Assembly: GCA_008632985.1 (NCBI GenBank)
Contig: QPGO01000035.1
Coordinates: forward strand, 111,899 to 175,898
Direction of reading: 5' to 3'
DNA length: 64,000 bases
Origin: Psammoneis japonica
Taxonomy: Eukaryota
Part shown: positions 5,080 to 64,000 of the stretch, in pieces
Numbering within the stretch: the first letter of the stretch is position 1
Layout: each line of letters opens with the position of its first letter
Made by a program: the position numbers and the translations under genes
Notes under the pieces: generated by a model
The model's input: the letters and a program-made list of their open reading frames with translations, nothing else
Databases searched by the model: none
Told to the model about the DNA's origin: nothing

Positions 5080-8050
5080 GCAGGTCACTCTCCATCCAGC
5101 TTCGGTGTGAGAGGGAAGTTCGTCCCGCGATTGCAATTCTGCTGAATCCAACCATGATCCACTTTGTTCCATGTCTCTTCTTCACCTTGCTTGTTGTTCC
5201 TGGCAAGCGGGCCATGGCAACTTCTCTGTTGCTGTCAAGCCCAAGATTCTAAGATTTGAAGGGGAGCGTCTGCGTGTGCAACGCAACTGTCTGTCCGAGA
5301 GCATCTCTGAGCAGCTGTGCCAAGATCTTTGCTCGCAAGGTGTCTTTGACCACAGTGAAGACACCCAGCACACCACACTTTGCCACACAAAGGGTGGACA
5401 TGCGGGCACACGCATCAAATCCAGCAAAAGACAGCTCTCTCTGCTCTCCCAGATGTGGTCACAGAAGACCCAAAGAGAAAGGAGAGTTCAATCTTTTGCA
5501 CCAAGCTCATGTCAGGGCCAACTTACAAGAACACCAGGGAACTTGTCAAAAAGGCCATTCCAAACTGAGTCTTGGAAGATGATGCTGGAACAACTCACCT
5601 CTGCGCATTGGCTCCTTGTGCAGCGGCCTCAGCAAATCACATGGACATCGCTGGCTGACATTGTTGTTGTCCAGCTTGTTGAAGCAAAGGAGTGGTTTCT
5701 CTGCAAAAAAAAAGTCTTTGAAAAGAAACAAAATGTCAAGAACAAGCTCCAACTCTGTGCAACACACAATGAAGAAGAAATTGATGACATGGTCTGTGAC
5801 AATCGACAAGGCAGGCGACCCTTTGCCCGGGGGATGCACTGTTTCCCCCTGCATGCATCATTTGTTCAACAAGAGCCCCTCTTGAGATGTCTTCTGTGCA
5901 TCCCACCTCTGCCAAGAGCAAGTGCATGATGCACCCCAAAGAGGACATGGTTCATCAATCTCTCTTCAAGGGACCACCTGCAATGCAGCACCAGAGGGAG
6001 GGACAAACTGCAACCAACGGTGCAACACAAGCTGTGACAATTTCCCAAACTGCAACTTGAATCAAGGAGATGCTTCTTGCAGTGGCAGCTGCAATGCAAA
6101 CTGTGATGACAGTTGCAATTCTTGTGACAGCTGTTGCGATGACACCAGCTGTGCAGGCACTTTTTGTTTTCCTGTTCTCCTCTGCAATGGTCTGTTCAAC
6201 AGTGGTTGCTGTGACAGTTGCAACACCTCCTCTTGCAATGGCTGTGTTTGTGATTCAAGCACAGGAGAGGATCAAGCTGCAATGAAAGCTGCGATGCATC
6301 CCCAAACAAAATTTGTCCTTCACCAACTCCCGCCCCCACTGACACCAAGAAGACCCAGTCCACTGCTGACTCCTGCTCTCACTCCAAGGCCATCTCCCAC
6401 CCCCACTTCATGGCCCACTTTAAGTTCATCATCTTTGCTGACAGTGAGTCTTGCACCCACTGGGGTTTTCACGACCAACACATCACCGAACGGGGGCCAT
6501 TGCTCTGTGTGGTCTGGCACCAGATGCACAACAAAAAGCAACTCACCAGAAAGTCCAGCATGTTGAGATGACACATGTGAGTGCCATTCATTGAGTGGAA
6601 CAAGGAGTGAGCTCTGGGTGACAACCATGTTGGCAATTTTGTCATCAAAACACTTGTGAACATCAGACAGCAGTGTGTGCCTGGGTTGAAAAGACATTTG
6701 GACAATGGCTGAGCCCTCTCCTGCTCTGGTCAGCTCTGATTTGGCCTGCAAGGCACCCATGGCAACACCAATGAGATCTTTGGCTTTGTCACAACAGCCT
6801 GCATTGAACATGAGGCAGGATTTACAAAATGTGAGCAAAGCAAGTTTTCCATGTCAACAATCATGTGCACGGGAGGAGGACCTCTCATCCTCTGTTTTTG
6901 CACCGTGCAGATCTCAGTTGGTTCAAGTCAGCAGATGACACCAGCTGCTGCATTGATGTTTGACCAGCTCTCATGAGCCTCCACTCTGTCGCACAGCAGC
7001 AAGGCATGCTGGCAAAGGATCAGCACCAACATTCTACCAGAACTCTTTTGTGGTCTTGGCACACCTTGCAGATCACCTCCCAGCACTTGAGCTGGTGGTG
7101 ACAGATGGCTCCTGAGTTTGAAGTCAGCAAGGTGGCTCATCTTTGGCCTGGTGCCAAGATTGCACAATCTTCTCAGTTGCTGTGAGCACTGCTTCTTTCT
7201 CCTGCAGGACATGAGATGGGTTTGGGCTCATCTTCAACCAGGTTCATGCCTCTTGTGACATTGGTGTGTGTTTTGGCACGTTCTCCAACAACAGCCAACA
7301 TCAGGTGCAAAAGTGGCTGGTGCATCAGATGCAATGTGCCAGCAGCTCATCAATGCTCACAACAGGGCCTGCAAAGATGCTGGGCAGCTGATTTCCATGT
7401 CTGGCCTCTGACAGTCATGCCCTGTGTCCAAGGGGAGCTCAGGATGCCTTCCTTGCACACTGCACACTTGCTTTTCATTTGTCTCTCTCTTTGATTTTTG
7501 AATGCTTGGCTGCCCACAGCCACAAAACAAACAAGTGCTGCACAAGGTCTTTTTTGTGAGCAAGACAGCAAACTGTGCCTGTGCCCACTTGTCATTGACA
7601 TCAGCTGCTCTTTCACGGGGGGCTCTTTTCAGTCGATGAGAGGACCCCCTCTTCTTGCTGCACCCTGGCTGGTGTGCTGTTGTCATGGCACTACACTGCA
7701 AACCAATGTCAACTGGACTGCCACCTTGTTCTGTTAATGGAGCAACCTTTGCACCCAGCCGCTGCTGCAGGAATCTGGTGCAAAGCGGTGGGTGTTGGAA
7801 GAAGCACTCTCTTTTCTTGCTTGTGCACCAGCAGCTTGTCAGTGCTCCAGATGGGGTCTGCAAAGCTGTCGGACAACTGCTGACACCCTCATCCATCTTG
7901 TGGCAGAGACAGGGCCGCAAGGCAGAGCCAACCTCTGGTCGTGCAGTGCGTCCAAGAGCGCTCAGGACCGGACGTCATCCTCGAATTCGCTTCACAGCTT
8001 CCTCCTTCCAGATTTCGTTGCGTGTTGTGTGTGCGTCGTTCTCTCTTTGA
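5080..8050. other. TpA- and CpG-depleted degenerate repeat block 1
   Basis: Only a handful of TA dinucleotides in ~3 kb; TG/CA-rich; overlapping Tyr-free, Cys/His-rich ORFs in all frames. Confidence 0.85.
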
Positions 8051-8085
8051 GTTTTTATAACTTATGCGTCTGGATAACATAAACA
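7555..8085 (+). mobile_element. LTR-like repeat copy B, TpA converted to TG/CA
   Basis: Diverged homologue of 4599-5033, e.g. CAGCAGCTTGTCAGTGCTCCAG vs CAGCAGCTTATCAATACTCTAG. Confidence 0.6.
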
Positions 8086-8867
8086 AATATATACAGTATA
8101 CAGAAACTTATTATTGTGTGACGGAATTTATGTATTAATTAATGCCCTAAGTTTCAATTATTCACTATTGGATTGCAACGCCAAAATCCTCGCCGCGTCA
8201 ATCGGATGCTTCCATCACCAACAAGTTGTGCTCCTATGAACGTTGCAAGAAATCTGAGAGGAAAAGGTCTCAATTCTGCTCCCTCTCTACTCTAGAGGAT
8301 AAGAGAACCATTCAGTCGAAGACCCTTTGCCAGGAAGTAGCTTTACGTTTGTCATCACACCTTTGAGCAATTACCGTGTATGAATAGTATTTTGAAATTT
8401 TTATTTTATTATTCATTCATTAATTAACTTATATTTACTTTCAATAAGTGAAATATATATTATTTAAAATTTATATATGAATACAAACATGTTTTAGCGA
8501 CACGTGCGCCACAAAAATTCGAGGCGGAGCAGAAAAAGCGAGACGACCCGCAAGCGACGCCTCACTGCATGCTGCCGTCATTCTCATTCGAACGATTACC
8601 GTACGCAGCTACTCTCGTGTTTCTTGTTGTCTTTTGTCGCTCATTGCATAGTCGGCCATCATTCATGTCAACTAATTCATAACTGGTTTGATAAAGCAGC
8701 GGCACCTTGTTTTTATTGGACAGAGTAAGAAAAAGAAAATGTGTTTCAGTTCGTTGTCAAGTGGCGAGGCTGTTTCCTCCGAAGAGCCACTCGCTGAACC
8801 ATAACGCCACAACGTATTGCATACTTACGCGGTTCTTTTTATCGCTATTCTCTGCTCTTATAGTACC

Positions 8868-20971: not shown

Positions 20972-21383
20972 TGTTGTGCTTTTTTGGTCGTGGAAAATGA
21001 CAGTGAGCAAAAATTGGTGCGTTGTGTCTTTCACGCCCGGAGTTGAACTTGGGAAAAAGAGCACCTGTCCAACGGCTAGTCTCTATGTAGGGTATAGGAA
21101 TAGAATATTCATGATTAAAAACGTACCATTCTTTATGTGGTATAAAGATATATTGATATATTAATAATTTGATTCATTTTTATACGGGACCCTTAATTGA
21201 AAATTATTCAGTAAAGAATAAATAATATGCGTTACAAAGCTAGTACTTCCTATAAAGTTTAGGCGCAACTGCTACGGTGGGTAGGGAATCACTTTATTTT
21301 CGTTTCTCCGGCCAATACCACAGCCAAGATTGTTTGAAGAACTCTCTACTCTAGAGTAGAGAGTAGATTGAGAGAGAGGCTTG

Positions 21384-30032: not shown

Positions 30033-30129
30033 AGTAGTCAGTCTTCCAATAATCGAAAATTGTTTCCATTAAATCCGTCCATCATGCTTTCTCATGCAGA
30101 TTCCAGCACTGCCAGCCTCATGGTTACTC

Positions 30130-32900
30130 AATGCAACACATTCACCACGCAAGAGAGCTGAACCCGTTGCTTCGACAGCAACAACAACCCTTGACACACA
30201 TCATTTTGTGCAGCCAATAACAATTGCCAGGGGCAGGTTGGAGATGATGCCATGAAACATGCAACACAGTTGTCAACAGACATTGAGTTCAGTGCATTTG
30301 TGCATGTGAAATTGGTGGGGGGGGGGGGGGGGGGCATGTCTGTCACGTGCCTGATGCCTGGTGTGCCTTTCTTTCCCCTCCTTTGTGAGTTTGGTGACAA
30401 CAATTTCAACAACACTTTTCAAGGCTGCTCCCCAGGTTGGTTGGATGAGTCCAATCTTAATTGAGAATGCACCTGGCAGACTTTGTTTGGCTGCATTGCT
30501 GCATTTTTTGATGGTGTGGCATCATTGGCCTGATGGATGATTGGTGGCCTGCATGTTTGCTGCACATTTTCAAACTGCATCAAAGATCATTTCTTTTGGG
30601 GGGGGGGGCAACGTTGACAATTTCTGATGTGCTTGATTCTGCTGAGAGTGCACCTGTCAAGACAGTGCTCTGGCAACAAAATGATCTGGCCATGATGGTG
30701 AAGAATCCTTTCAGGCTTGGTTCAGGCCTGCATGGGAGCCACTCTTATCTGATGTCAATGTCAACAAGATTTGTCAAGCACTGCACTTTTCATCTGACAA
30801 CAAGTGCTGGCTCATTGCAGCCAAAGCCCCACAAGCACAATGAGGACAAAGCCAGCATTGGTGGCAAACATGCTCTTGGATGGGCACAAATGACAAAAGA
30901 CAAAACAAGGACAGCCCAAAATCACTCCCATTGTTTTTTGCTGGCAACCAGCAATGTGTGCCCAGCTGCAGCAACCCAAAGTTCATCTCCAATGCCAAAA
31001 GTGCCACCCTGTCTTAGCCCTGTGTTTGTAAAAAGTCAGGGAACATTCTCCGCTTGAGCGACATGATTTCCAGAGCTGTGCATCTTGTCCAGCTCCAGCC
31101 CAATCATTCTCCACCACTTGCCACCACACCGACACATGGGACATGCCAAGCTCACTCTCACAAGTGTTCTGTGTGTGCATGGCTGGATGTTAAAATGGTC
31201 TTGCTGTAGTGTGCTGTTGGGGGAGCACAAGAACCTTGCCAAGGCCATGGCAGAGATGCCTTTGGCTCCACACATGAAGAAAAAAATTCTGCACAGGCCC
31301 AGCTGCAGTTTTGTTCACTTGGCCACACATGCAAGGCTTGTTGATTTGCTCTTTTCATGCAAAGTGTCCAACTTGTGACTTCAGGCACACTTCAGACCAC
31401 AGGGCTGTCTGTCACAACAAGCCAACAAAATGGAGATCAGCAGTGCAGTGATTGGAACCTTGCTTGCTTTTGCTGCCTTGCTGTTGACTCTCCTGCAAAA
31501 ATTGGAATGTTGCAGAAAAACTGCCAACAGTGGAATGGGGGCACCAAAAAATGATGGCCCAAGGGGGGATCTCAGCCAAAGGTCAAGTCAATCATGCTCA
31601 CAAAAATGGCCAAGCCAGCTGTGCTTGTGAAAAAGAAGCCACACTGCACACCTTGTGACACATGGTGGCAAGTTTTGACAATCAACACCAGCCATTGACA
31701 AGCAATGCACACATTTTGTCAACCCTCCCTCCCCTGACTTCACTGTGGAAAATCTCCATTCTTCCAACTTGAATGTTGTTGCAAGTGCCATGCAGTCATT
31801 GGGCAATGTGATGACAGGTGGCTGGACCATTTCATTTGACACTGCATGCGTGCTGCAGTTGCAATGTTGCCAGCCCACACCAGACCTCCCATGTGGGAGT
31901 GCAGCACCCACAATGCAAGACAGAGGTGGCCCTCTTCCCAATGGTTTGTGTTTTCACATCCACTTGAGCAAAGCCAGAGAATGAACACTGGCCCATGACA
32001 AACCACTTTTGTCACTTGGAGTCACATCAGTTGCCAGTGCAGTGCACACAAGCACAATGTGCACTGGAGTCAATTGTCACATTTTTGAAACCATTGCATT
32101 TTCCAGCAGTTGCCAATCTCACAAAGTGAAACTTTTGATGACAACAGTGTGAAACATTTGGTGAGGACACTTTGGCAACATTGCGTCTGACATTCTTTTC
32201 TTCTTTTTCAATTGTCGCACAAAACCAGAACAAAGCTGCATGCCTTTGAGTGTGGCTTCTGCCACTTTTTGGCTCCTGGGTGAGAAGAGGTCATGCACAG
32301 CATGGCTTTGGCCACTTTGCCAACCACCCCACTGCATGACACCATGAAGGGAGCAAAGTGACATCTTTGCTCAAGGCAGAGCTTGAGGTGCTTGTGTTTT
32401 TTCTTGTGTTTGCAGGTTGCTGGGACTTTTTCTGGTGTCTTGGATGGGCGTGACTTCACGCCTGTGTCTGGATGTGGACATCTGTGATGGTGTCTGTCCT
32501 TCCATCCCAGAATCCGTGGGAGAGAAGACATCCACAGTTTCCATCCTCACACACGTTGGGAGAGCCAGTGCTGCCTGGCTGACCACTGGAGGTGCTTGAG
32601 CTTCCTGAGAGGTGACCAGCGGGGTTGACCATGGATTCGCATGTGTGGGAAGGCTTGCAAGCCTCCCCAGCCAGGTCACATGGGTCATCACATGGTTGAT
32701 GGGGAGTTTGCACCCACACACATCACAGCACTCGGGTGGGTCTGGTGTGGAGTGCCGCGCCGCTCCTCCAAAGGCAGAGCACGTTGTGGAACTCTGGGCA
32801 CGAGAGTTCCGTGCCATTCAGCATGAATGGGCACACTGACAGCCACGCTCCGGTCTTGGTGCTACGTTGGACAGCTCTGGCCTTGATGTCGGGTGGAGTC
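30130..32900. other. TpA- and CpG-depleted degenerate repeat block 2
   Basis: Near-absence of TA and CG dinucleotides; contains a LINE fragment. Confidence 0.85.
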
Positions 32901-32990
32901 CCAAGGATCGACTTGAGGGTCTCCTCATGCGCTTTCACTTTCCGATCGGCTACTTCTCGTTTCACTTCGACAGTGTCCTGCCTTTTGGGT
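32225..32990 (-). mobile_element. 5'-truncated non-LTR retrotransposon fragment of RLE/CRE-like type (zinc knuckle plus restriction-like endonuclease region), degenerate
   Basis: GAWLSVCPFMLNGTELS..EF, CDVCGC..H, GFWDGRTDTITDV, KKHKHLKLCLEQRCHFAPFMVSCSG and KWQKPHS pieces match the recalled C-terminus of this family. Confidence 0.8.
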
Positions 32991-37538: not shown

Positions 37539-37809
37539 GGCTCTTTCGGTTGAGCTGGTGTTGAGAATGAATACGATAGGCTTGAATGAGAATCAGAGAG
37601 ATTGAAGATGATTGATGTGAACGCTAGCTAGCTAGCTACCAGTAGAGAGAGAGAGAGATGCAACAGTACAAATCAAAAATCGGGAATCGAATTTTGAATC
37701 ATCGAAGGTGTCACGTACAATTCTACAGGACAATAGCGTCAGTTAACGGCTGGATTTTGAGAACTCACTCCATCCGCTTTTTCTCCGCTCTCCAAACGAA
37801 CAAATCCAT

Positions 37810-38060
37810 CTTTCGACTTATTTGCCAATCCACGATCTTCGTGAACCCATTTTTCACCTTCATCTCGGCTTCTTCGAGGAAGCAACTGATTGCCTGCGGG
37901 TCCTTGGCAGAGGGCTGTGGTCTTTTCTTGATGGCAAACTCTCAGCACGACGCCCAGCGCCCAGCTCATCCTGCACAGAGAGGACTGGGCACCCTTGTTC
38001 TGCGCACTCCCCCTGAAGCAGAGGTGCAGCTGGGTGCTCCAAGGCCACACACGTGGAAAT
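37810..38060 (-). mobile_element. Fragment of a DIRS-like (tyrosine-recombinase) retrotransposon pol, region N-terminal to RT
   Basis: ALEHPAAPLLQGECAEQGCPV and AIKKRPQPSAKDPQA..FLEEAEMKVKNGFTKIVDW resemble recalled diatom YR-retroelement sequence; not database-checked. Confidence 0.6.
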
Positions 38061-38339
38061 GCCAGTTGAGTTTTTGACAGCAAGCTGCCATGTCAGACAT
38101 GCTGCCATGTCAGACAATGAGCTCCTCCAGCTCTGAATGACAGGGGGGCTGCAAGAACGTGCTGCTTCACAGCCCCCGACGTGTTCTTTCACAAACTTTG
38201 CACACATTTCTGCATGACATGGGATCAACCCCACACACTGGTTTGCAGCAAAATTGCCAGGCCATCCATTTTCAACACACCTTTTTGGCTTTTTTGTTGT
38301 TGTGCGCAGTTGCACTTCATTCTCTGAGTGATGCAAGAG

Positions 38340-39690
38340 ATGAGAAAGCGCACGAGCACATGACAACTTTCCAAAAAAACTTGAGTGTGGAGAAATGTGA
38401 TGACGCTGCAAAAGCAGCCATTTGTTTTGATGACAAAGACAGATGTGCTCACCACCCTGTGTGCAATTTGCAGAGCTGGCATGCAGCGTCCTGCATGGGA
38501 CAAGAAATGTCCCAAAAAAATCCACCTGGAGCTGCAGAGAGCACCATGCCATCACTTGCCCTGTCTCCCTGGTTGACTCAGTCACATCTGTGCCCACCTG
38601 CCTCTTCCTCATCCAACTCATCATCAGAAACTGCTGGCATGTGCTTGCACTTTGTGGCTTTGCTTTGTGGGGTTTGACACTGGTGGATGGGCAAGGCCTG
38701 TTGGCAAAGGACTGGAGCATTTTCAGCTCTTGCACACTCTCCATGAAGAGCTCACACAATGCCTGGCATCCTGGGCAAGGATGTTGTGGGGCAGGATTCT
38801 TCTCTGGCATCTGGGGCACTTGGTCCAACTGATGTGCCATCCACAGTCACAAGATTTGTGCATGTCTGGGACATTCTGGGGGTCCTTCATTGTCTTTCAC
38901 AGTTGTCGGGCAGAGCTTGTTTGTTTTCTCCTCCTTCTTCCCTCCTCCTTGTCTGCCAATTGTGCACCATTTGGGTGCTTTGTGGGAAGGTGGCTGGCAT
39001 CAGTGTTGACAGGGAGTTGTTTCTTAGTGTGCACAGAGGAGGGGCACAAAAAGGGGCACAAAGAGGCATGTCTGAACTTGCTCTGGCAGGCATGAACAGT
39101 CGGTTGGAGGCTGTGCAAGAACTCATCCACTGCTGGACCAGCTTCTTTGATGCTCCTGCCACCATTGCTGCTGTCCAAATTGATTGCTGTGGTTTTTGGC
39201 CAAGAAGGTGTCTCTGGGAAATGCTTCTTGTGGCCACCTGTCTTGTGACAGCCAGCATGGTGCGCGCATGTGTGGGGCCAAGTTCAGGCATTCTTTGGTC
39301 AGACACTTTTTCAGAAAGCTTGGCTCCTTTTCCTTTGTGAGCTCCTCATGCAGCAAAAATGCACATTGAGTGGCAGGAGACATGTTGCCCCCATCAACAT
39401 GTTTGACAAGGTTCTGTGTGTGCTCATGGTTGTTTTGATGATTCCCTCTTGTGCTCTTTTGTAGCCACCTTTAAATGCCTGCCATGATGACATGTGCAAT
39501 GTGCCCTCCAGTGCATCTGTCCTTTGGCTTGGTTGGTGCATGACCCCTCCTTGACACCTGTTTAAAGCACAGCAAAAGGCAGACATCATGCAGTTGGCAC
39601 AGCTTGTGTGCAGCACCAGTGGCACCTTCTTGGGAACTGCTGCTGCTTGTGCACATCTGCCAAAAATTCAATGGTTGTTGTGTGCTCCAT
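38340..39690 (+). repeat. Diverged repeat copy 1 (38340-38745 and 39470-39690), homologous to 45895-46595
   Basis: Shared strings e.g. GCAAAAGCAGCCATTTGTTTTGATG, GTGCAATTTGCAGAGCTGG and GGCACCTTCTTGGGAACTGCTGCT. Confidence 0.85.
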
Positions 39691-42600
39691 GCTGCTGTCC
39701 TTTTTGTCTCTGCAGTTGTGAAACATTTGTGACAAACAAATCACTCACCATGGATGACATCGTGAGACAATTTCCTGAGTGAGGGACACACATGAATGCA
39801 GTGTCCTGGCACCTGTCAAAGCAATTGTCAACATTCTCCACATGTCTGTGTTGCAGTGAACAAGGAGGAGACGCTGCTCACCTTTGCCACCAAGAACTGG
39901 ATTTTTGGCCTGTTGGGCAGATGTGGGCACTGGCGCTGCACCAATCTTTTGCAGCCAACAGTCTTCCTGCCAACCCCATGTCTGATCAATGTTCCCTGCT
40001 TGCAGCTCCTGACATTTTCAAGCAACTTGACAAAAAAACAATCAAGGTGTGCAAAAAGCAGAGGAGGTGGTGGCATCTTTTTGGTGCATGTCTCAAAAGC
40101 TGATGTGGAGACACTGGCGTCACATGTTTTGTGTTGGAGCAGGGAGCCAGCAACAAGAAAGAAAATCATGTGGGCACTTGCAACCCTGGCAACAAGAGTT
40201 GTTGAACAACTTTGGTTGTGCAGGGCAGCACTTTGTCTTTGGCCCAGATGGAAAACAAGACAAACCACCATGTGACAACCAGATGGATTTTCTGCTGTTT
40301 TTGACAAGGTGCAAGATGTCAACCATGGGGTGGAGATCAAAGCAGATGATTGCCAATTTGTCAGATCAGATGCAGAAAGCCCATGACAAAATCAGTGCAG
40401 AATGTTTGCCTGCAAAAAACTGCTGGAGCTTCATGTTCTTGCTGCAAAAACATGAGACCATTCAGGCGAAACATTTGTCAAGAGCAGATGACTGCACACA
40501 GAAGCACAAGGACAATCAGAGTTGCACTCTTGGCTGGGCACACACAAACTGGTGCTTTTTGTGCAACTGTGGTTGATCATGAGGGTTGGCTCTGGTTGCT
40601 TGTGGCTCTGGTCAACAGCCAAGCCAAGGTCACATGTGGGTTTGGTGCATGCTTGCTCTGCAGCCAAATGCAATGTCTTGTGCCAGTGCACTGGACACTG
40701 CCTTGGATGATTTCAGGAGAGCTCTCATCACTTGGTTGACAATGTTTTGCTCAACCACACAGAACCCCACAGAGCATGTTGCTGGACAAATGCTGTCCTT
40801 GGTTGCAGCACAATTTGTCCATGATTGCTGGATTTCTCCAGCCTCTTCTGTTGTGCACAAAACATGAGGTTCCTGTGTGAACAAACTGATTCAGTTGGAA
40901 TTTGTTGCTGGTCATTGGCTTGGCTTGCAATGTTTTTTTCTGTGTGTGCACAAGTTGTTTGAAGAGGAAATGATCTGTGGGCACAGCTGACAAAAGCCCT
41001 GCTGTTGTCCATGGGAAGCATTTGACAAAGCTGTTTTGTGCACTCATCTCAGACAAGTGTCTCAACAAGGCACATCTTGCGTCAGTTGGCAATCTTGATT
41101 TTTGTTCAGTTTTTGTGGATGGAAATTCCAAGGAGGAAAGAAAAGCAGCCGGCAAGACAGTGAATGAAGTGCTGAAACATGTTGACTGGAAACTGCAGTC
41201 TTGCATTTCTGTGATGAAAAAGTGCCTGCACAGCAGATCAGTGAAAGGGTTGGAACCAATGAGTTCCATCCCAAGAATGTCAAGGTTTTGTTCAAAAACA
41301 TCATGGTCTCTGGAGTCCACTTGATTTGTGACAGTGCTGAGTTTAAATTGATGACAACCATCTGGACACTTCCAGTCCTTTGTGGCATTGACATTGGGGG
41401 GCACATTGACATCCATCATGACCTTGTTCATCCTGCCTGGGATCTTGGAGCTGACACACAGCTTGCCCACATCAACAAGAATGACAGAGTCAATGTGGCT
41501 TGCTCACTTGCAGAAGCTTGTGGTTTGGAGGGATTTAGAAGAAACAATGGCAAGGAGGGGCCCTTGTGTGAAGTGGCAAGCAACTCATTTGGCAATGCTC
41601 AGTGTGGGTTGCCATTTGTGTGGGGCACATCTCTTCACATTGCATGGTGTCTGCACAGGCACTCAGAGTGTCAGGACATTTGGCAGCTGTGAATGGGAAA
41701 AGGTGAAGTGCACATGCTGCTGAGTGATGATCTGGATGGCACCAATGCTGGCTCCTCTCCAATTGTGTGCAGCATGATCACAACACCCAGAACAATGCCA
41801 GCCCTTTCAAAAATGCTGATGACAATGTTGCCCACCACAACAGTGGCAATTGGAGCAATGAACAGCTGGAAAATGATGAAGCCACAAAACCAGCAAGAAA
41901 AAAAAGATGGAAGGATGTTGTGTGCAACACTCCTGAGATTTGCCTTGGCAAGCAACAAAGCCCATGACAATCTTGATGATCTTGACAGTGAAAAGAAGTT
42001 GCAGAGTGAACAACAGAAAAACAATGCAAAATGACCAAACCAAGCAGCAAGAAAGGAATGAGGGGAGTTGGCCAAGCACATTTCCCAGAAGGTTTCTGAC
42101 ACTTTTGTTTGAAGTTGCAAGTGTGTGCCTCACTTGATGCCTTCGCTCTGTGTCACACAGCAAAGAAGATGTGTCTGTTGCAAGCATGCTGGATCACCTT
42201 TTGCATTGCCTCTGCATGACTAGCCAGAGCCAGGGGGGTGAAGCAAACATGCTGTCTTGCAGTGATGTCACAGGATTGAGAAAGGCAAGTCCTTCCTCAA
42301 GACTCATCAATGAATTGGGGATGAGGCAAGGTGCACTCATGCAGAAGAGATGGGCCCTGGCACACAAGTTCACACTGTCTTGGCAAGACAGAGACAGCAC
42401 CCTGCATCTCAATTGTGATGTGTCAGGCAGGCACACACTCTGAAATTGCAACAGATTGGCTCTGGATGCAAGGCTCATGGTGTGATGACATTGATGGGAA
42501 AAATTTCTTTGTCAAATGACTTGTTTGGGTTGCTGTTGTCATTGCTGGACAACACTGCCAATGAATTGGTGGCAAGGCTTGAGAACTTGCGTGTGCCGCT

Positions 42601-44152
42601 CAATCTTTGTTCATTCACAGCAGCAGCTCAGCACACTGTTGGGTTCAAGCAAGAGCTGGCTCCTGCCACACTTTGATGATTTGTGCACAGACAATTGGCT
42701 GCAGCTCTGGAGTTCAGCCTCACTGTTGAAGTTTGGACATTGACAATGAGGCAAAACGAGCAACAACCCATGTTTGACAAATGCAGCAATCAAGAATGCA
42801 TGCCCTCATTGGATTGAAAGCCAGAAAAATGCAGAAGAGCAGCCCAGAAGGTCTCAGGGAACTGGCTCTCCAAGCAAGAACTCCATGCACTGGAGAAAAC
42901 AAAGTGCGGGCAAAGAAGAACCTTTTTTGCTTCATTCACTCCAGCTCACAACTGGCCACTGAGGACCACAAAGCCAGACTTTTTTGCATGCCAAAATTTG
43001 AGTTGTTCAAAGGAGGGCTGTGCATTTTTGGGTCTGTCTGCTTGAGTTGGTGTTTCTGCCAATGTCCAGTTGTGCCTGCATGAGTGGTGTCAGTTTTTTT
43101 GCATCAAAGTGTCCTCATGCCCAAATGTTTGATGGCAAAGAACCACCACACGTGGTTGGGAACTTGCTTTTTTGTTCACGCAGAAGATGGAGCATGTCAA
43201 ATTTTGACACTTCTTGCTTTTTCCAAGCTGAGTTTTCTCATGCCATTTCCCATTGATTTGCTGTTTTTCTTTGCTTGTGCTGACATTTCCATCAGCTGTT
43301 TTGCTCCTTTTGCTGTCCTTGTCCCTTGGCCAACTGCTGACACTCATTTCCTTGTCTTGTGTCCACTGTGCAAGAGAGTGACCCCAGGTGGTGTCTTTGT
43401 TTTGGAGTTGGCCTTGCTGCCATTTTGCCCCTTGCCCCATGAACACACAATTGAGCAACAACAGGATGGACAGGCCATGTTCAATCAGTGTCAGATTGGT
43501 TGCTGGCCAGCCCCTCCCAATTCCAGCATGTTCCTGCAGCCTCTGCGGAGACTTTGAATTGTTGCATGCCAAATTTTGCGGGGCAGAGCTTTTTCAACGC
43601 ATGGATCCAAATCTGCACCATGCACCATGTTGCATCTTTTCAAAAATCAACATCTGTCAATGTCTCATTGATGCCACCCACATGTTGCAAAGCATGTCGC
43701 AATGGTGCATGTCTGCTTTGTCTTGCTCCTCTTGTTCTTGTCAATGTTGGCTTGATCTGCCGTTCTCTTCTTTGATGCATGCTCTTTTGTTGCTTTTTCA
43801 GATTTTGCCATGAGCCCTGTTCTGAATGCTGCTTCTGCACTCCCCTTTGCTCTGCGATCTGCAGTTTGCTTTCTGTGTTTTTGGTGCTCGGCTTTTGCTC
43901 TTGAATGGACAATTTTTTTTACAATGTTCTTCCACATGTGCTTCATTGACGCAATGGCCATCCATTTGCTGCCATTCTCTTGGGATGTTTTCAAAAAGGA
44001 GCATCGCAACACCTCGTCTCCCATTGGATTCTCCACATGCAGAAGTCAAGAAAATCATCACCACGACATTCAAAAGCTTTTGCATCACATTGTCCCCGTG
44101 TCTGACACAGCAGTGTCTTTGCAACTGCAAAAAAAGGCTTGGAAACCAAGGC

Positions 44153-44291
44153 CAGAGGTGCACAAATCGTCTGTTGTCGTTCGCACACGCGCACTTGCAC
44201 ACTCAGCGCGCGCACAAACGACAAAACGATGACATCGTTTTGTCGTTCGTGCGTTGCACGCGGGCGACAACAGACGATTTATGCACCTCTG
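44153..44291. mobile_element. 139-bp hAT-like MITE, nearly palindromic
   Basis: 27-bp TIRs CAGAGGTGCA(C/T)AAATCGTCTGTTGTCG; perfect 8-bp TSD ACCAAGGC (44145-44152, 44292-44299); inner hairpin. Confidence 0.92.
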
Positions 44292-45894
44292 ACCAAGGCA
44301 AGCCATCCAATGTTGTGACTCTGTTCTCCCCGTGAACAACAGTCACTCGTGCAATTGTCGTCCAACATTGCTTTGTCATGAAAGATTCTCATGCCATCTA
44401 AGAATTCTGCCAGGTCTTCAACAGCTTCAACGGATCTCCAATTTTCCTCTTTTGCCATTTTCTGCCTCCGTGAAAGCTTCTTCTGAAGAGAAAATGTCAC
44501 CCAACCACCTCGCCATGTTGTCCTTCTTCAGTCACACATCGGCACACTCTTTCTTCTGCATGCTTTGTTTTGATGCCAAAAAGACAGCCATTGGATTCCT
44601 TGTCCAATCCAACAGATGACAAGAAAGAGCCTAGACCAACTTGGCAATGCTTGCCACAGAGTTTGGAAGTGGCAGAATCTTGGGCTTCACTGGAGCAGAT
44701 GACAGCAGTGCAACTCTCTTCATTTGAAGAAGGCACAGATGTTGGCAGATGCCATCATTTCAAGTCACACAGGAGATCTGCAGCCTTGTCCATTGCTCTG
44801 CCTGCAGTTGACTGCGCTGCTGGCACTTGACATTCCAAATGTGACAACCAATCTGCCTGTGCCATCAAACACATTTGTCTGTCATTGTCCTGGATCCGTT
44901 TAAAGTGCCCTGATGACAAGGGCCCTTGACAGTCCTTGGTTGGATCAGGGGCATTGCGACTCTGCTTTTGGTTCTTGCAAGTTGCTCTGTGAAAGTTGGA
45001 TTTCCTCTTTCCACAGAAATGGTGCTGTCAGCCCCTGCTGCAGGCATCTGGAGGTTGCATTGTCTGCAAAGGCATCAAACTCTTTGAAGAATCATCAACC
45101 AAAGAATCCCTTCTTAGCAGGTTCTGGCTCTTCCTGCCATTCCTGCCTCACAAGCCGAGTCAAAGTGGCAGAACTCAGAGAGGGAGCAACATGTCATGAA
45201 GCAATGAATTGCAACATGAGTTTGTGGATCAAATAAAATGTCAAACAACTTTTGCGTCCCTCCCATTGAGAGTGTCAATGTTGATTGTTGAGTGTCATTG
45301 TGTGTTGCAGTGTTCAGAAAAATCAAAATTTCAAAAAGCTCCGCCCCCCGCAAAATTCAGCATGCAACAAATCAAAGTCCCTGCAGCCAATGTGCAATCA
45401 CACCGGAAATGGGAGGCCAGCCGGCAACTGGTCCAATGATGATTGAACAAGAACAAATTGTTGAAGCCTGCGGCGGAGCCTGCACAGCCCTGCCTGTCCT
45501 GTTGTTTGATTGCACATCCATGCCTTGCCACCCCAGCTGGAGGTCAGTTCACCAGATGGACAAAGCTCTCTGAATGGCCTGTGTTCAACATCTTCCTGTG
45601 ACCCACACATCATGTGGGATCTGGCCTGTGTGCCAAAAACAGCAGAATCATCTTCAGAGTCAGTCTTGCTGCCACTGGATCTCTCTTGCATGTCCCTTCT
45701 GGAGTTTGCTGAACAGGCAAATCTCTCCAGTGGCTGCTCAGCCTGCATTCAATGATCTTCCTCTCTTCCTTGCCTCATTTGGGATTGCAGTCACAGTGCC
45801 AAAAGTGGTCACAAGTCATCTTTGGAACATCATCTTCAGAGTCGTCAAACTTGCTGGCAGATTCTCTGAAGTGTGCAAAGTGCTGCAAGAGACA

Positions 45895-46595
45895 ACAACA
45901 AAGCACGAGCACATGTGACAACTTTCCAAAAAAAGCTTTAAGTGTGAAGAACTGTGATGGTGTTGCAAAAGCAGCCATTTGTTTTGATGTCAAAGACAAA
46001 TGTGCTCACCTGGTGTGCAATTTGCAGAGCTGGTGTGTGGAGTCCTGGTGTGGGACAAATGCCCCAAAAATCCCCACCTGGAGCTCTGGGGAAAGCACGT
46101 CATCACAGTTGCCCTGTCCTTCCTTGTTGACTCAATCATGTCCATGCTCCCACCTGCCTCTCAATCATCTGGCTCATCATTGAACACTTTGTGGCCTTGC
46201 TTTGTGGGGTTTGACACAGGTTGACAGGCAAGGCATGTTGGCAAAGGGTCTGGGCATTTTCAGTTTGCACTCTCCGCAAACAGCAAACCACACAACTTCT
46301 TGTGTCCTTGGCAAGGGCAACTGTGTGTGCCCATGATTGTTTTGACACCCCCCTTGATTTCTTTTTTGGCCATCTTTTAAACGTCTGCCATGACAACACG
46401 CAATGTGCTCTGCAGCACTTCTGTCCATTGGCTTGGTTGGTGTGCAGCACCACCTCCTTGACACATCCATTCTTCAACACACAGCAAGGGGCAGGTGTCA
46501 CACTTTTGGCTCAGCTTGTGTTCACCAACGGCACCTTCTTGGGAACTGCTGCTTGTGTGCATCTGCCACAAATTTGTTGGTTGTTGTGTGCTTCA
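45895..46595 (+). repeat. Diverged repeat copy 2, homologous to 38340-39690 but lacking most of its ~0.7-kb central part
   Basis: By-eye alignment to copy 1. Confidence 0.85.
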
Positions 46596-47849
46596 TCAAT
46601 GTTGCCACCCCTCCTTGGTCCTCCCCACAAGAGTGTGCAAGAGAGATGTTGGTCCAGTGAGCACTGCAATTTTTCCAGGGCAGGCCTCCTCTCCCCAAAC
46701 ATCTCAAAGAGTGCATTGTCCTCCAGGCTCTTTTTGCCCTTTCTTCTCTGCAGGATTAGAAGCAGATTTGTGCAACTGGTTTTTCATTGTGCAGGTGACA
46801 AGAGATGTGAGAAGAGATGTTGTTTCTCTGGTGAGTGCTGCTTGCCAATGCCACACTCACACTCAACCACAAGAGCTTCTTGCTGCACAAAAGAATTTTG
46901 GACATGTTGGTGATGTGTGCCTCTTCTTGGTGTTCTTCTTCTCTTCTTTGCAGCTGCATCTGTGCAGAGAGTTGTGTGCCAGGCATCATCCTTGCATTTT
47001 TTTCATTGGAGTCTTCCACCTCACACATGAGTGGATGCACAACATTGGCATCTTGCATTGTTCAAAAACCAGGGTCTTCCTTGTGCTTGTGCAAACCACC
47101 TCTGCTTCACTGCCTGTGACAGAGGAGTGCAGTGCAGGGGCTTGACTGAAAGCTGGTTGACCAGAGATGAAAATGAGTGGGACCAAAATTTGCCTCAATC
47201 AAATGTGCCAAGGCACCAGTGCATGTCTTTTCTTGCACAGGATTCTACAGAGTTTTGCCACTGAGAATGTTTGGTGGTGCTGGAACTTGTCATGGATGCA
47301 TGGCCAAACTTTTCACCACCACTTTGCAACAAAGAAGCTGCTGACCTTTTTCTGACACAAATGTTGCACCACTCACTTTGCCTCTTGTGACCCAAAATTC
47401 TAGAGATCTGTTGTCATTCTTCTTGGCACACCTGGTGCTGCAGTCAACCACTTTTTTGTGTGGAGTTGCAGCATCACAAAAACTGGGGAGAAGAGCTGCT
47501 GGCACTCTCTGCCACCACAAAACAGCGCCAGTGCTCACACTTTTCAACTTGTGATTGGCATGAAATGTTTGTCCATTTGCCAGCTGAGTGTGTTCTGTGC
47601 TCCACTGGTTTGTCTCTCACCCCACAGAATTGGAGCACCCTCTCTCCCTCTCTCTCTTGATGTGATTAAACCCAGCACAGAGTTAAAGGGCCTGTGCAAA
47701 ATGGAAGGAAACAGCAGAAGGATGTGCGGAAGTGGCAGCAGCGGAGGAGCAGAAAGGCTGCTGAATGCAGTGTGCAGGGTGTTTGGCAGAGGAGGTGGGA
47801 AATGAGTCAGTGTGGAGGGAGGATGCAAAGCAAAGGGAGCATGCATGGA

Positions 47850-48200
47850 AAGATGGCAGATGAGGTTGCATCCCCAATCATTTGAACATCCCATTGGGAA
47901 GGGAAGGGAAGGCAGAGTGGTGGTGTGTGCTGCACCAAAGCAGCCATTGGAAAGGTGGTTTCACACAAAATTGGCAGAAGGAAGAAGGGCAGATGGGTGA
48001 ATTGGGGCACCAAGAAAGGCAGAGCAGGAAGCATTGGAGTTGTGGAGGTCAGAGGAGGAGGGCCAGGGGGGCTTGGACTGACGGCAGAGGAGAGTGAAGA
48101 GCTGAAGAGAAGTTGAACAAGGCAAAAGAAGCCAAGACCATGAAGGTGATCCATCAACAAGAGATCCATCAGTGAAAAAGGCAGAAGGTCCAAGAAACTT
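47850..48200 (-). mobile_element. Possible degenerate RNase H domain of a retroelement
   Basis: FFTDGSLVDGSPSWSWLL and a downstream WGCNLICHL resemble RNase H motifs; frames disrupted. Confidence 0.35.
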
Positions 48201-48884
48201 TGGTCTTGCACTTGAGGGGTGTGCCTTGGTTGGGATGGGGGGAGAGGGAGCAGGGCAAGAAGGAGCTTGCGGAATGGCGAGGCATGCAGCGGGGGAAGGA
48301 GCCAAAAGAGAAGCAGGAGGCAGTGTGGAAATGCTGACATCAGCAGGATGGAGCAGCAGATGGGTGGGAAGTTGACTCATGGGCTTGGGGTGAACATCAC
48401 TTGAGGAGTGACAGAGCTTGGCAAGCAGCCCCAAGGTCTGGGACAGAACAAAGAAGGTGTGCCCCTGAGAGGCTGTTCTTGGGCACTCCCAAGGTTCTTG
48501 GTGACCCGATCAGCAAGAAAAGGTATGACCACCACAAGCATCAAGCACAGCATGACCACAGGGACAGGGTGTGCCAACAAGGGAAGGAGGAAGGATTGGG
48601 AGACGGAGCTTCCGCCCTCTTTGCCCGTCCTTTGGACATGGCGTTGTGAGTCAGGCGGTGTAATGAGAGTCACGCCAGTTCTCTGTAGATCTTTTTTCGG
48701 CAATCATCAATCGTCTGTTTTTGGACTTTGCGTGTTGCAATCGATCGCACAGCATCACAGCATCACAGCTCACAGCAACAGCAATCAACGATCAACGCAA
48801 CATTGCTCGGACAAAGATAGCTACGATTTTTGTTATCCTTTGTGTTCTGTCAGCCACTCTTTAGTATAGATACAAAAAATTGAT

Positions 48885-55067: not shown

Positions 55068-55164
55068 TTTATTTGTTTATTTTATGGGATTGCTCGAGAA
55101 TTCAGCTGTCGGCAGCCCTTGTTCAATGTTTGGGACGGTGCGCGTCTCGGGTCTACGATTTGAA

Positions 55165-55220
55165 ACGTGGGTCGTGAGACGTGGGTCGTGAGACGTGGGT
55201 CGTGAGACGTGGGTCGTGAG
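55165..55220. repeat. Tandem repeat, 14-bp unit ACGTGGGTCGTGAG x4
   Basis: Read directly; ~100 bp upstream of the 54261-55067 gene. Confidence 0.95.
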
Positions 55221-55259
55221 TCGTGTTACCACTTTTAGCTGTACGTACAGACAGTACAG

Positions 55260-58200
55260 TCTCTCTCTCTCTGCCGACCGGGACAGTTGTTGTTGTGTGC
55301 AAAGAGACAGACTCTTGTGCTCCAAGTGGTGAGGCGACCCAGCCGTGGGGGGTTGATGCAAGTCACGCTGCACCATGAGGACACACAGCCAAATGAACCC
55401 AAAATGAAATGTGACAAATCCAACACATGAAAACAGTTCACAAAAAAGTCGTTCCAAGTCTTTTGTTGAGCCCCAAGTCAAGCCTCACAATCAACGCCAG
55501 AGAAGTGGTTCCAACACACTCTCCAGAAGAAGGAAGAGACTCGAGATTGAGTGCAAGGACAAGCAACCAATCAAATCAAAACACAACAGTGGCTGACAAC
55601 GTTGTGTTGCATTGCAGCCATTTCTTTTTTTGCTGAGTTCCGAGTCAAGCTGTCATGCACAATTGACGCGAGTCAATCTCGGTTTCCCTTGGAGCCACCA
55701 AGTTCCAACCCTGGCAACAGACAAGGACACAAGCCACAATTTTGTTTCACAGCAACAGCTTCCACGAGAATCCTCGCTGCAGTTCAACTCAAATCAAGTC
55801 CAACAAAACCCATCCACTGCTGCTCCAAAAGTGTCTCACATTTGCAACAGTAAAAACACCATTCAATCACGTGCACTGTGACCTCAAAACAGAAAATTCA
55901 ATGGTGCAATGCTGGTGCCAGTGCACCCATTCACTGGAATGCAACAACTCCCTCACACAAATTTGGCTCAAATGACATCACACAACCCCCCCTCCCACTG
56001 CTCAAAAACTGTCTCTCATTTGAAAACAGCCACAGCGCCATTGTTCACATGTGTGCACCACCATGCCCTCATGCAGAACAATTGATGGTGCAATGCTGAT
56101 GCACTCATGGTTGTCCCTGTCATCAGCCAGAGGAGCTCCGCGGTTGCACAACAAGGCGATCACCACAATCAACAATTGCACTCACATGACTTGCAAATCA
56201 TCAATGCTTGAACAATGGAGCACTGCTGCCTCCTTGTTTCAGAGCATGAAACAAAATGGACAGCTGCTGTGAGCAAGATGACACAAATGTCCACCACAAC
56301 TGGCCAAGCATCAAACATGTCATTGCACCATGAGATGCATGAACACAACTCAAGAGTGCACTGCATTTTCTCACCACAATGCCAATGCGTGCACATGTCA
56401 GCCCCAGAAAAGGGGGGGGGTCAATGGGATGGAGCCAACTGGCTTTGAAATGAGCATTGCAGAGACTTTGAGTTTGTGCTCCCCTTGCAGGAAAAGCACC
56501 AGAAGCCATGTGGCATGATTGGGTGGTGCTTGATCTTGGGAGGATGGGCCACTGGGCAACTCCCCCAGTGCTGCAAATGAAATTGAGCATGATGATGCAC
56601 ATCTGCATGGCTTCCTGTGGGGCACTTGTCTCTGCACAATGTGCACCTTTGTCCAGCTCAGTGCCATCCAACCCCAGCAGATTTTTGCATCAAGAGCATG
56701 CCAGAGACAGACACAAACAGGCACAACATGTTCTCTAAAGTGCCGCAGTTCCCATCATTTTTACAAAGAGGAGAATGAAGGGGGGAAGGAACAGAGAGCT
56801 GAAGGGTGGATGCAAGAAACCAGCAACATCAATGCAAGAACCATGAAAGCCAGCTCTTTTTGATTTCATTTTCATGAAAAAAGGTCAAGGGAAGGTGGCA
56901 ATGACAAAGACAGCCATCACAATGTGCTTGGTTTTCCTTCCCAGAACAGCAGCTGAAAGATGAGGGCAGCAACATTGTTGTTGCGGCAGTGCTCAACCCC
57001 AGCACAACAAGCAGAGGTGACCTGCAGAGCCCACATGAAACAACTTGCTTGTTGCAAACAACATTGCTGAATGAGAACAGCACGTGTGTGTCTGCCAGTT
57101 TTGGTTCAGACAACATGGTGTGTTTCTGTGTGGTTGCACTGCTGACTCAGCCAGAATGCAGAGAGCAGAGCTGGCTTGTTTGTGTGGCATGTGGAGCAAA
57201 GAAACATGAAGAGATCTCAGCTTTTTCAAAAAGCAAAAAGGACAGCATGGAATGAGCAGGTCTGCAGCTGAAAAGGGAGCAGGACCTGAAGAACTGCAAC
57301 ATCAACTGCAGTGACAAAAGCCAGCTCTTTTGCAACATTGCACTTGTGAAAGAGAGGACAAAGGAAGGTCACAACAATGAAGGCAGGAGCAGCAGGTGTG
57401 GTGGTGCACCAGGCTCTCACTTTTTGGCCCAGCTCTTGAAAAGCAAAGAAGTCATGCCGTCATTGTGACAGTGCTCCAATGTGACAGGGAGTGGTGACAT
57501 GCAGTGCCAAATGAGCTGCTTGTTCATTGTGACACTGAGTGAGCTGTCTTGGTGTCTGCAAGTTTTGGTTGAGATGGTCATGTGGCACACACTTCTCATT
57601 TCTTGTATCCCGGCCCATTGTTGCACAAACAAACTGGCACTTGCCACACTGCACACAGCTCAATGCTCCAATGCAGTGGGCAGTGGGAGCTGATGGTGTC
57701 AAGTGAGCTGCTTCTGACATTGTCTGAGCAGTCTGCATGTTTGCACACTCACATTGCCACCTTGGCCAAAAGCAGCAGAGAGAGAGAGAGAGAGACAGAG
57801 AAAAAAAGTTAGCTCATTTGCACATGAAAAGCTCTCAAACAGATGAGGGCAGTGCACTCAAAAGCAGTCACAGCAGCAGAGAGAAAGATGAGAACACTCC
57901 TGACTGGCTGGTGCACACCCTGTGAGATCACCCCACCTCCAGGTGATTCACACATCTGTTCAACCACCACCACAGGTGTGTGTGTGAGTGCAAGTGTGTG
58001 TGTGACATGAAACCAGCAAGCAAGCCATCAGCTCTTGCTGACTGCCAGTGTCACTCTGTTCAGATCTCTGAGATTTTTTAGCATCTGGAGCATTAAAAAA
58101 TGTCTTGATCCTGGCCCTGAAAGTGCTTCTCATTCTTGGTCCCCAGCTCCCTTTTGTGTTGCCTGCACCCTCCTGCTCTAATCTTTCTCTTTGACAATGG

Positions 58201-59390
58201 GCTTTTCACATCATTCACAGAACAACCCAGCAGCACAACCCAGCCATCATGAATGTCAACAGAAGTGCAACAAGCTCCCAGCTCAAGCTCATCATGAATT
58301 CAGCTGTGGAGAAAAGCATGCTGGGAGAGATCCTGGAAGCTCGACTCTTTGTGCTTGGCTGTCATGAGCAAGTCTTCCATTTGTCCACAGTCCTTCAATG
58401 TGCTGCAATCTGTCATGCAGCATTTTCTGTTGGTTGTCTGACACAAAAGGCTGACAAGGGTGCCAGACAAGAAAAAAACTTTTGGCCTGCTGGGTCAAAT
58501 GAGGGTTTGTTGAATGGCCACCAGGTGGCATCCCTTGGAACAACACTTGTGTGCCAAAACACTTGCTGATGTGCAGAGACAGTCACATGCTTTTGCATTT
58601 TGTTTTCTTGTTTGTGCTGGAGAATGACCCCCAACAACGTGCTTGCCAGCGGGGTGCTGCATGTTGGACATTTCTCAAAATCATGTTGACGTTCAATGGC
58701 TCCCTCATTTTGCCTGTCTCAGTGTGTTCTTTTTCTCCAGAACCAGGAAAAACATGATTCATGGTGTCACAGGAGGTCAAGATGGTGACAGGCACACAAA
58801 ATGTTCCTTTTGTGGGCTGTCACTGAAGTGATGAGGCCTCCTTTGCCATGTTCACAGAGGATCTTGTTAGAGCAGCACATCTTGGAGGATGTGCATGGCA
58901 GTTGACATGCACAGCACTCAGTTGGCATGCATTTCTTCCAGCAAATGCAGTGGCTCACTGTTTCAAAACTTTGGTGCCAAACTGTGTTGATCTGCTCTGT
59001 CATTTTGCACAAAACTGTGCCGCACATTTGACATGTCTTTGCTCATCACTCAGGACAAGAGCTGCTGATGTGGCACTTGCTTGCAACAAGATGAAGAAAC
59101 CACAGCCATTTGGCAACTCTCATCATTTAGAAAAACGCCACTGGCAGCACCTGTTTGCAACAAGAGCTGGCTCTTGTTCACAGCCCAGACAAATGATGGG
59201 CATCAAGAATGTTCCAAAGATCGTTTGCAAGCCAGAACTTGCGTTTGCATGGACTTGGTCATGTCACAAGTTGGAGCAATCTTTTTGAGTGAGATCTGTT
59301 CAATGGGAGTGTGGGTTCTTAATGCCAACAGAGATTGTGGTGTGGACGACAACAAAGCTTGATGATGGATCAACCAAAATGCCGATGACA
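55260..59390. other. TpA- and CpG-depleted degenerate repeat block 4
   Basis: Near-absence of TA; a WHDWVVL piece (~56510) weakly recalls Plavaka-type transposase C-termini. Confidence 0.85.
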
Positions 59391-63450: not shown

Positions 63451-63479
63451 AGCAACGAGCAACGAGCAACGAGCAACGA
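63451..63479. repeat. Tandem repeat, 7-bp unit AGCAACG x4
   Basis: Read directly; upstream of the ankyrin gene. Confidence 0.9.
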
Positions 63480-63684
63480 ACGTTGTGTTGTGGGTCGTAA
63501 CGTTGTTGTGTGGGTTGTTGGTGCCGGGCAGATTTTGGATCCTGGATCTTTCGGTCGCGCGGTGAGAGATGGGAAGACATTGATGATGACTAACTCCCAA
63601 CTGCCCAACTCCCAACTCTACCATTGCCATTTCTCGTGGCTCGTGGAGATCTTGGGCGAACCTCTGCTGATAGTCTATGATACA

Positions 63685-64000
63685 ATCACGATGAGGGATG
63701 ATGACCTGGAGGAATTTGTCAGGCAAGTGCAGCTCCCAATCAGCGAGCAGGTCGAAATGCATCGAGATTTTGCGGTGGAACAAGCAGAACATTTTTGGCC
63801 CATGCAAGACAATCGCCTGAAATGTTTCTTTGACACGCACAAGGAAGAATCATCCAAGTTCCCTGCTGGTGATGTTGGATGAGGTCATGCTGGTCATGTT
63901 GTGAAAATGGCTTTGCATTGCCGACCCCCTCTGTTCCAACAAGACAAAGAGTTGGTGGTGTGATGAAGTCCTCTCGAAAGAGAAACTTGATTGGCCTTGA
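63685..64000. other. Start of a fifth TpA-free block (runs off the window)
   Basis: No TA seen in the last ~315 bp, while some CG remains. Confidence 0.6.

Follow-up and report, generated by a model that had tools for sequence, protein, structure and literature searches.

TA-free blocks between the genes of a diatom contig point to TpA-directed A:T-to-G:C hypermutation

TpA-specific hypermutation of inserted DNA has been reported once so far, in a 2026 preprint on the chlorarachniophyte Bigelowiella natans, a rhizarian alga (Mettrop et al., bioRxiv 10.64898/2026.01.13.699255). According to that preprint, integrated DNA of nucleocytoplasmic large DNA viruses (NCLDV) and virophages is hypermutated at TpA, and in mutation-accumulation lines two viral regions mutate about 1000x as fast as the remaining genome, with transcription silent in the larger region, an NCLDV insert. 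The de novo mutations were A>G or T>C in 230 of 231 cases and are said to all fall on TpA, the genome contains 124 clusters of windows that are poor in TpA and rich in CpA plus TpG, and an ADAT2-like (ADAT/TadA-like) deaminase is proposed as the enzyme. Here we analyze a 64,000-nt stretch of contig QPGO01000035.1 from the diatom Psammoneis japonica (referred to below as the window), in which five sharply bounded blocks situated among ordinary genes have lost nearly all of their TA dinucleotides. The initial annotation of the window proposed the responsible process as a candidate undescribed system, a claim that the B. natans precedent overturns. For diatoms, we found no description of TA-erasing hypermutation in the literature, and a term search of the accessible text of a diatom mutation-accumulation paper (PMC6604790) returned none of “TpA”, “hypermut” and “hotspot”. 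Likewise, the terms CpG, diatoms, and trinucleotide context returned nothing when the accessible text of the B. natans preprint was searched for them.

Other mutational processes provide useful points of comparison. Fungal repeat-induced point mutation (RIP) converts CpA to TpA, which creates TA and lowers G+C content, and it hits both copies of a duplication. In vertebrates and plants, CpG decay by deamination of 5-methylcytosine (5mC) converts CG to TG or CA. Finally, TadA, ADAT2/3, and the TadA-derived adenine base editors convert A to inosine, which is read as G, at sites with a 5′ U or T, and the TadA/ADAT-like signature also includes a 3′ C. As in B. natans, the change that we describe in the diatom is TpA to TpG or CpA on either strand, in discrete regions among normal genes. 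By analogy, we regard the diatom case as the same kind of process in a second lineage, closer to saturation. It differs from B. natans in that the host is a stramenopile, CpG is lost in the block cores, and the blocks lack any recognizable viral or transposon protein. The 5′-TAC/TAY preference, the loss of TA before CG, and a domain edge that runs through a repeat are new relative to that system.

The five blocks comprise about 20.8 kb in total, and none is assigned a strand. Block 1 (5078..7995) is a TA-free zone surrounding a CG-poor core at about 5400-7600, block 2 (30100..32960) lies directly 3′ of an ABC-B transporter gene, block 3 (37800..48620) is the largest and is composite, and block 4 (55300..59350) is delimited by its dinucleotide composition. 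Only the start of block 5 (63690..64000) is visible, since this block runs past the window end. We counted dinucleotides in the four complete blocks (20,454 nt) and took the flank rate as the expectation. TA occurs 49 times versus 837 expected, such that 94% of the expected TA is missing; the observed/expected ratio (o/e) is 0.04 in the blocks and 0.59 in the flanks. CG occurs 203 times versus 1103 expected (o/e 0.17 versus 0.97). TG and CA, with counts of 2336 and 2323, rise to o/e values of 1.80 (versus 1.15 in the flanks) and 1.84 (versus 1.17), and each remains at about 1.8 in every kb of the blocks. The longest TA-free run is 1781 nt in the blocks, compared to 170 nt outside them, where the mean gap between TAs is 24 nt. 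In block 5, positions 63681-64000 are free of TA, and 63801-64000 contain 0 TA, 4 CG, and 27 TG. The block edges are sharp to about 100-200 nt, and the change is confined to these discrete regions. These counts confirm what the initial annotation had described, namely five sharply bounded blocks of ~21 kb that are nearly devoid of TA and CG. The TA o/e of 0.04 is also far below the value of 0.45 given for the NCLDV region of B. natans.

The composition of the blocks is balanced in a way that indicates how TA and CG were lost. G+C content is equal in blocks and flanks, and the fraction of pyrimidine-purine steps is nearly identical (0.2401 in blocks, 0.2393 in flanks). The excess of TG plus CA in the blocks (about 1706) is close to the deficit of TA plus CG (about 1688). 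Because loss equals gain at pyrimidine-purine steps, the blocks resemble DNA in which TA and CG were converted to TG and CA by transitions. This pattern shares several features with RIP, including a density of transitions high enough to ruin repeated or non-genic sequence, a dinucleotide signature, and sharp borders. However, TA is destroyed rather than created, TG and CA are gained, and G+C is unchanged, and in this sense the blocks are the reverse of fungal RIP, as the initial annotation had put it.

A direct repeat flanking block 1 shows the direction of the change. We recoded the window to purines and pyrimidines, which makes an alignment blind to transitions, and aligned the repeat with standard scoring; the block 1 flanking repeat was the top match of the recoded window (74% identity, z = 32.8 versus shuffles). 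The left copy (4729..5048, plus strand) lies in normal DNA with its TAs present and provides the reference state, whereas the right copy (7773..8102, plus strand) straddles the edge of block 1 near 7995. Among the left-copy TAs that align inside the TA-free zone, 0/13 are retained in the right copy: 4 are now TG, 5 CA, and 1 TT, and 3 are affected by gaps, such that 9/10 ungapped sites have become TG or CA. Outside the zone, 4/7 left-copy TAs are retained (Fisher p = 0.007, inside versus outside). TA therefore became TG or CA inside the domain, in the direction A:T to G:C. This polarized comparison bears out the TA-specific loss that the initial annotation had proposed (0/13 versus 4/7). Moreover, since the zone ends partway through the right copy and the left copy is free of the change, it is the domain edge, and not homology, that decides which DNA mutates. 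This differs from RIP, in which both copies of a duplication are hit, as one copy of the 320-nt repeat is untouched here. A 320-nt repeat may be under the RIP length threshold. The chemistry of the blocks is opposite to that of fungal RIP, and so is their targeting, to the extent that a single short repeat can reveal it. We searched for flanking repeats of blocks 2-4 and found none (z at or below 2.7).

We next consider how the loss of TA relates to the loss of CG. At several edges, the TA-free zone reaches 200-400 nt past the CG-poor core, and at 5080-5400, 7800-7995, 32600-32960, and 37800-38000 CG is close to normal although TA has disappeared. Similarly, the core of an element nested in block 3 (44000-44400) contains 25 CG but only 1 TA per 400 nt, and the part of the right repeat copy inside the zone retains 4/7 CGs compared to 0/13 TAs. 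TA loss is thus separable from CG loss, and it is both wider and faster. The joint depletion of TA and CG proposed in the initial annotation holds insofar as both are lost in the blocks, but not in extent, as the TA-free zone is wider. Its proposal of a second process, distinct from CpG decay, that acts at TA on both strands and turns A:T into G:C is upheld by the polarized repeat and by the TA-free zones with normal CG. CpG decay by 5mC deamination cannot account for the loss of TA, although by composition it would match the conversion of CG to TG or CA in the block cores. CG survival is higher at RCGY (0.134; R, purine; Y, pyrimidine) than at YCGR (0.068), a mild Y-C-G preference that recalls the TCG bias of basidiomycete TCG hypermutation.

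The spatial separation of the two losses also bears on whether a single enzyme could cause both. A dual-specificity deaminase that takes A at TA and C at CG would deplete both dinucleotides in the same domains, as observed, and would remove CG without methylation; ADAT2 enzymes acting on both A and C in DNA are cited in the accessible text of the B. natans preprint (bioRxiv 10.64898/2026.01.13.699255). We consider this explanation improbable because the 44.0-44.4 kb core and the block edges lack TA yet have near-normal CG, because the polarized repeat lost every in-zone TA while keeping over half of its CGs, and because the B. natans hypermutation, in the same text, is nearly all A/T>G/C.

The sequence context of the few remaining TAs is strongly biased. 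Residual TA is found as YTAR at 30/51 block sites, compared to 313/1780 flank sites (odds ratio 6.7, p = 1e-10). TA survival per flank site is 0.096 for YTAR, 0.027 for YTAY, 0.0135 for RTAR, and 0.0037 for RTAY; these values are multiplicative per strand, which is expected if either strand is hit where its A precedes a pyrimidine. The gains follow the same pattern. In the Y..Y context TG increases by 304 and CA by 128, whereas in the R..R context TG increases by 121 and CA by 358, and the combined excess of YTGY and RCAR is 663 versus 249 for YCAY and RTGR, the latter being about half of the CG loss. Grouped according to which base follows the converted A, the gains come to 731 for C, 470 for T, 334 for G, and 211 for A, and this 3′-C preference would also explain why the GC dinucleotide rises from 1.02 to 1.22. 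In the polarized repeat, 4/4 informative sites follow the context rule (p = 0.06). These results show that an A preceding a pyrimidine is favored on either strand, most strongly in 5′-TAC-3′, in the order TAC >> TAT ~ TAG > TAA.

This preference is reminiscent of TadA-like deaminases. According to PMC12296453, wild-type TadA depends on “UACG” and TadA-8e favors “UA”. The resemblance to TadA, ADAT2/3, and the adenine base editors is a likeness of signature rather than family membership; in contrast to the diatom blocks, the natural substrates of these enzymes are tRNA loops, and DNA activity in algae in vivo is unproven. Among the candidates listed in the initial annotation, an adenine deaminase fits best by virtue of the 5′-TAC match to what is described of TadA, but no deaminase is found among the window's annotated genes. 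We treat a TadA/ADAT-like DNA adenine deaminase as a lead and not as proof, with a likelihood that we place somewhat short of even.

Another possibility is that the thymine at TpA (R-T-A) is the substrate. If this thymine were modified or oxidized, for example by a TET/JBP-type dioxygenase, to 5-hydroxymethyluracil (5hmU) or 5-formyluracil (5fU), it could pair with G and yield T>C, and the same enzyme class might hit 5mC at CpG. A>G at 5′-TAY and T>C at 5′-RTA on the opposite strand are indistinguishable from sequence, and a single activity on 5-methylpyrimidines before a purine would take both TA and methylated CG to TG or CA. Additionally, 5-formyluracil is mutagenic, and 5hmU in dinoflagellates prefers TpA. 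Nevertheless, TA and CG losses differ in space and rate, and the 3′-C preference fits the TadA substrate loop. The candidate named in the accessible B. natans text is also ADAT2-like, albeit by prediction only (bioRxiv 10.64898/2026.01.13.699255). We consider a thymine target unlikely on these grounds.

Two further sources of A>G changes with a 5′ T preference are A-to-I editing of retroelement RNA before reverse transcription and WA>WG errors of Pol-eta-type repair. Both are very hard to reconcile with the blocks. TG and CA increase symmetrically within a single strand (2336 versus 2323), six-frame Pfam scans of the blocks contain no reverse transcriptase domain, and the mutated zone cuts through the flanking repeat and does not run along element ends. 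Furthermore, AA/TT is not depleted, with an o/e of 1.21-1.22 in the blocks and 1.16-1.17 in the flanks. This last comparison contradicts the Pol-eta WA>WG signature, which consists of A>G at both TA and AA, and with it the Pol-eta-like candidate of the initial annotation.

Within the blocks, TG is often exchanged for CA at a single dinucleotide, which requires two transitions. We observe 14 such double swaps in 751 alignment columns of a diverged repeat at 38.3/45.9 kb in block 3, four in the alignment of the block 1 flanking repeat, and several in inverted repeats of block 3; they also account for 3 of about ten differences between the window and a public sequencing run, X1, in block 2. Such swaps would be frequent if each TA or CG that ordinary mutation regenerates from TG or CA were soon reconverted, half of the time to the other form.

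Read data support the blocks as a true feature of the DNA. In run X1, 85% of sampled words of 25000-34999 are present, and contigs cross three block edges, including both edges of block 2, at a k-mer depth of 49-65, like the flanks. One contig of 8131 nt spans from the gene flank at 35480 to 43609 in block 3 with 7 differences. Since edge-bridging contigs occur at flank depth, the blocks are not an assembly artifact. Window and run differ by about 10 events within 2.6 kb of block 2, compared to 3 per roughly 2.6 kb of flank DNA, a difference that is suggestive only, and comparison of the window with contigs from elsewhere in X1 yields 234 transitions and 46 transversions. We also considered whether modified bases at heterochromatic TA and CG might have been misread as TG or CA during sequencing or assembly. 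In favor of this idea, the run that contains the blocks may have supplied the assembly itself, and no library type is recorded for it. However, misreading of a palindromic site would give all-TG from one strand and all-CA from the other, whereas the X1 contigs, including the 8131-nt contig over an edge, carry the same fixed TG/CA mosaic as the window, and the two copies of the block 1 repeat differ by ordinary fixed substitutions and indels. It thus appears extremely unlikely that the blocks reflect misread bases. Should X1 be the source of the assembly, some sample-level peculiarity could still underlie them, although none limited to such domains is known. A second run, X2, is RNA in practice, as stretches of 87 and 74 nt that have GT..AG ends are missing from its contigs. 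The X2 contigs match genes and none falls on most of blocks 2 and 3, where missing contig cover is no proof of silence.

To assess what the blocks once were, we turned to protein, RNA, and repeat searches. Pfam scans covered six-frame translations of the four complete blocks (stops written as X) and 24 + 12 block open reading frames (ORFs), and no family scored at its curated cut-off or higher; two sub-threshold matches were weak (MPTase-PolyVal, E 0.018; TRAPPC10, E 0.068). For a 328-aa ORF at 37863-38846 on the minus strand, there were 0 matches in 1.84 billion representatives and no usable match in a protein atlas. A homologue search with two ORFs of the multi-copy element found none, six-frame blastp between blocks returned nothing but the known block 3 repeat, and Rfam and tRNA scans of the blocks gave no match. 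That repeat is a diverged direct repeat at 38327..39690 (plus strand), with a partner at 45879..46596 (plus strand) and about 75% identity. The nested element, which has no assigned strand, occupies 1.9 kb (43480..45447) and has an inverted repeat of about 120 nt at either end (43480-43600 and 45330-45447). It is matched by many extra X1 contigs from elsewhere, and summed contig depth at 43.0-45.7 kb is 178-1180 versus about 65 alongside, a figure that is a sum over contigs and not a copy number. A degenerate pattern of the terminal inverted repeat (Y/R at every TG/CA) had 2 matches within the window, while metagenome contigs gave 0. Based on these sequence features, the transposon origin that the initial annotation assigned to the blocks is plausible for part of block 3, where 43.5-45.4 kb looks like a mobile element, and unproven for the rest of the block DNA, as no Pfam family reaches cut-off in any of the four complete ones.

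We also noted several local features of the blocks. The center of the nested element (44150-44294) is a CG-rich near-palindrome with 35-nt arms that are 89% complementary and 75 nt apart; it is the sole site in a block core where CG survives, with TA gone. At the right end of block 3 (47668-48661), the plus strand is strongly purine-rich (A 296, G 369, C 171, T 158). At the left border of block 4, a 14-nt tandem repeat (55161-55225, 4.6 copies, 96% matches) lies directly before the loss of TA.

Because relatives of the block interiors were not found, the ancestral state is not directly visible, and inserts from a virus or element that always lacked TA or CG might seem to offer an explanation. 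We give this native-composition explanation very little weight. The flanking repeat is TA-normal in one copy and TA-free in the other exactly to the domain edge, pyrimidine-purine steps are in mass balance, and the direction of the gains depends on context. In addition, Tyr codons would be entirely absent from a coding element that lacked TA. We looked for similar composition near the eIF6 gene in other diatoms using 80 metagenomic loci, and 0/1618 windows of 500 nt (434 kb) were block-like; 20 windows had a TA o/e <=0.2, all of them with a CG o/e >=0.73. These contigs are short and gene-rich and their synteny stops before block 1, and hence this result is no proof that other diatoms lack the process.

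Taken together, these observations favor a TpA-specific A:T-to-G:C mutator that acts in bounded domains of intergenic inserts, accompanied by a slower loss of CG, to which we assign a probability of roughly 80%. According to this model, intergenic inserts that are at least partly mobile would lie within bounded domains in which a mutator working on DNA would change A:T to G:C at TpA; a hit on the plus-strand A would yield TG, and a hit on the minus-strand A would yield CA. TpA conversion would have run nearly to completion. A second, slower process, most likely methylated-CpG deamination, would strip CG from the cores of the same domains. As both processes would end in TG/CA, any fresh TA or CG would be pushed back to TG or CA.

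Several points weigh against this model. Polarity rests on one 320-nt repeat (20 TA sites) together with composition arguments, and the latter assume that the blocks were formerly flank-like. How the gains divide between former TA and former CG sites also depends on a model. When pure TA/CG conversion was applied to flank DNA in a forward simulation, the pyrimidine-purine shifts were reproduced, but other shifts were fitted only in part (GC 1.06 simulated versus 1.22 observed; AT 0.90 versus 0.80), which implies either that ancestral composition differed or that other changes accumulated. A foreign or transposon origin is unproven, with no Pfam family at cut-off and no protein relatives. Lastly, run X1 may be the window's own assembly data and, if so, is not independent of the sample.

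If the model is correct, a saturated diatom case would show that TpA hypermutation extends beyond one species, is able to finish, and coexists with CpG decay. It would add handles on mechanism, namely a TAC/TAY preference that points toward a TadA-like deaminase, kinetics faster than those of CpG loss, and a boundary set by the domain, and it bears on how algae without RIP disable invading DNA. We infer that the process is tied to silent or methylated chromatin and has a role in defense. More speculatively, a nuclear TadA-like DNA adenine deaminase with a 5′-TAC preference could be a heterochromatin-coupled defense arm common to diatoms and chlorarachniophytes, which are distant SAR algae, acting beside CpG methylation in places fixed by chromatin domain rather than by homology and driving inserts to a TA-free, CG-free end state; we offer this extension tentatively and expect that it is more probably wrong than right. 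Such a “TG/CA-only” end state would remove Tyr codons, TAA and TAG stops, TATA-like signals, and the TA and TTAA target sites of transposons. A practical consequence for annotators is that blocks of this kind escape protein-based searches for transposons and viruses, while purine/pyrimidine recoding restores their homologies.

The DNA surrounding the blocks is unremarkable in gene content. Flank ORFs encode ordinary eukaryotic proteins, including HSF, MFS, class-I aldolase, eIF6, MsrA, NmrA-like, and CRAL/TRIO proteins as well as ABC-B, ABC-G, IPP-2, nitroreductase, PARP/WWE, DSBA-like, and ankyrin proteins. The eIF6 ORF is 90-95% identical to pennate-diatom proteins (Fragilaria crotonensis, 92%; Seminavis robusta, 91%), in keeping with the diatom origin that the initial annotation had assumed. 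The genes for eIF6 and methionine sulfoxide reductase (16131-17919) are also neighbors in several metagenomic diatom contigs (loci L003, L005, L007, and L009), indicating conserved microsynteny. Two closely spaced NmrA-like ORFs on the minus strand (18830-19441 and 20264-21082) are probably a local duplication. Upstream of the ABC-B gene and outside the blocks, the segment at 27135-27605 is matched by very many contigs (summed depth 1253), with joints and “goes back” records among them; this segment is a repeat, dispersed or tandem, whose TA and CG are normal. Finally, at 35229-35329 a second contig occurs in the DNA run as well as in the RNA run and differs from the window at 15 positions per 100 nt, which suggests an expressed paralogue of the 3′ part of the ABC-G gene.

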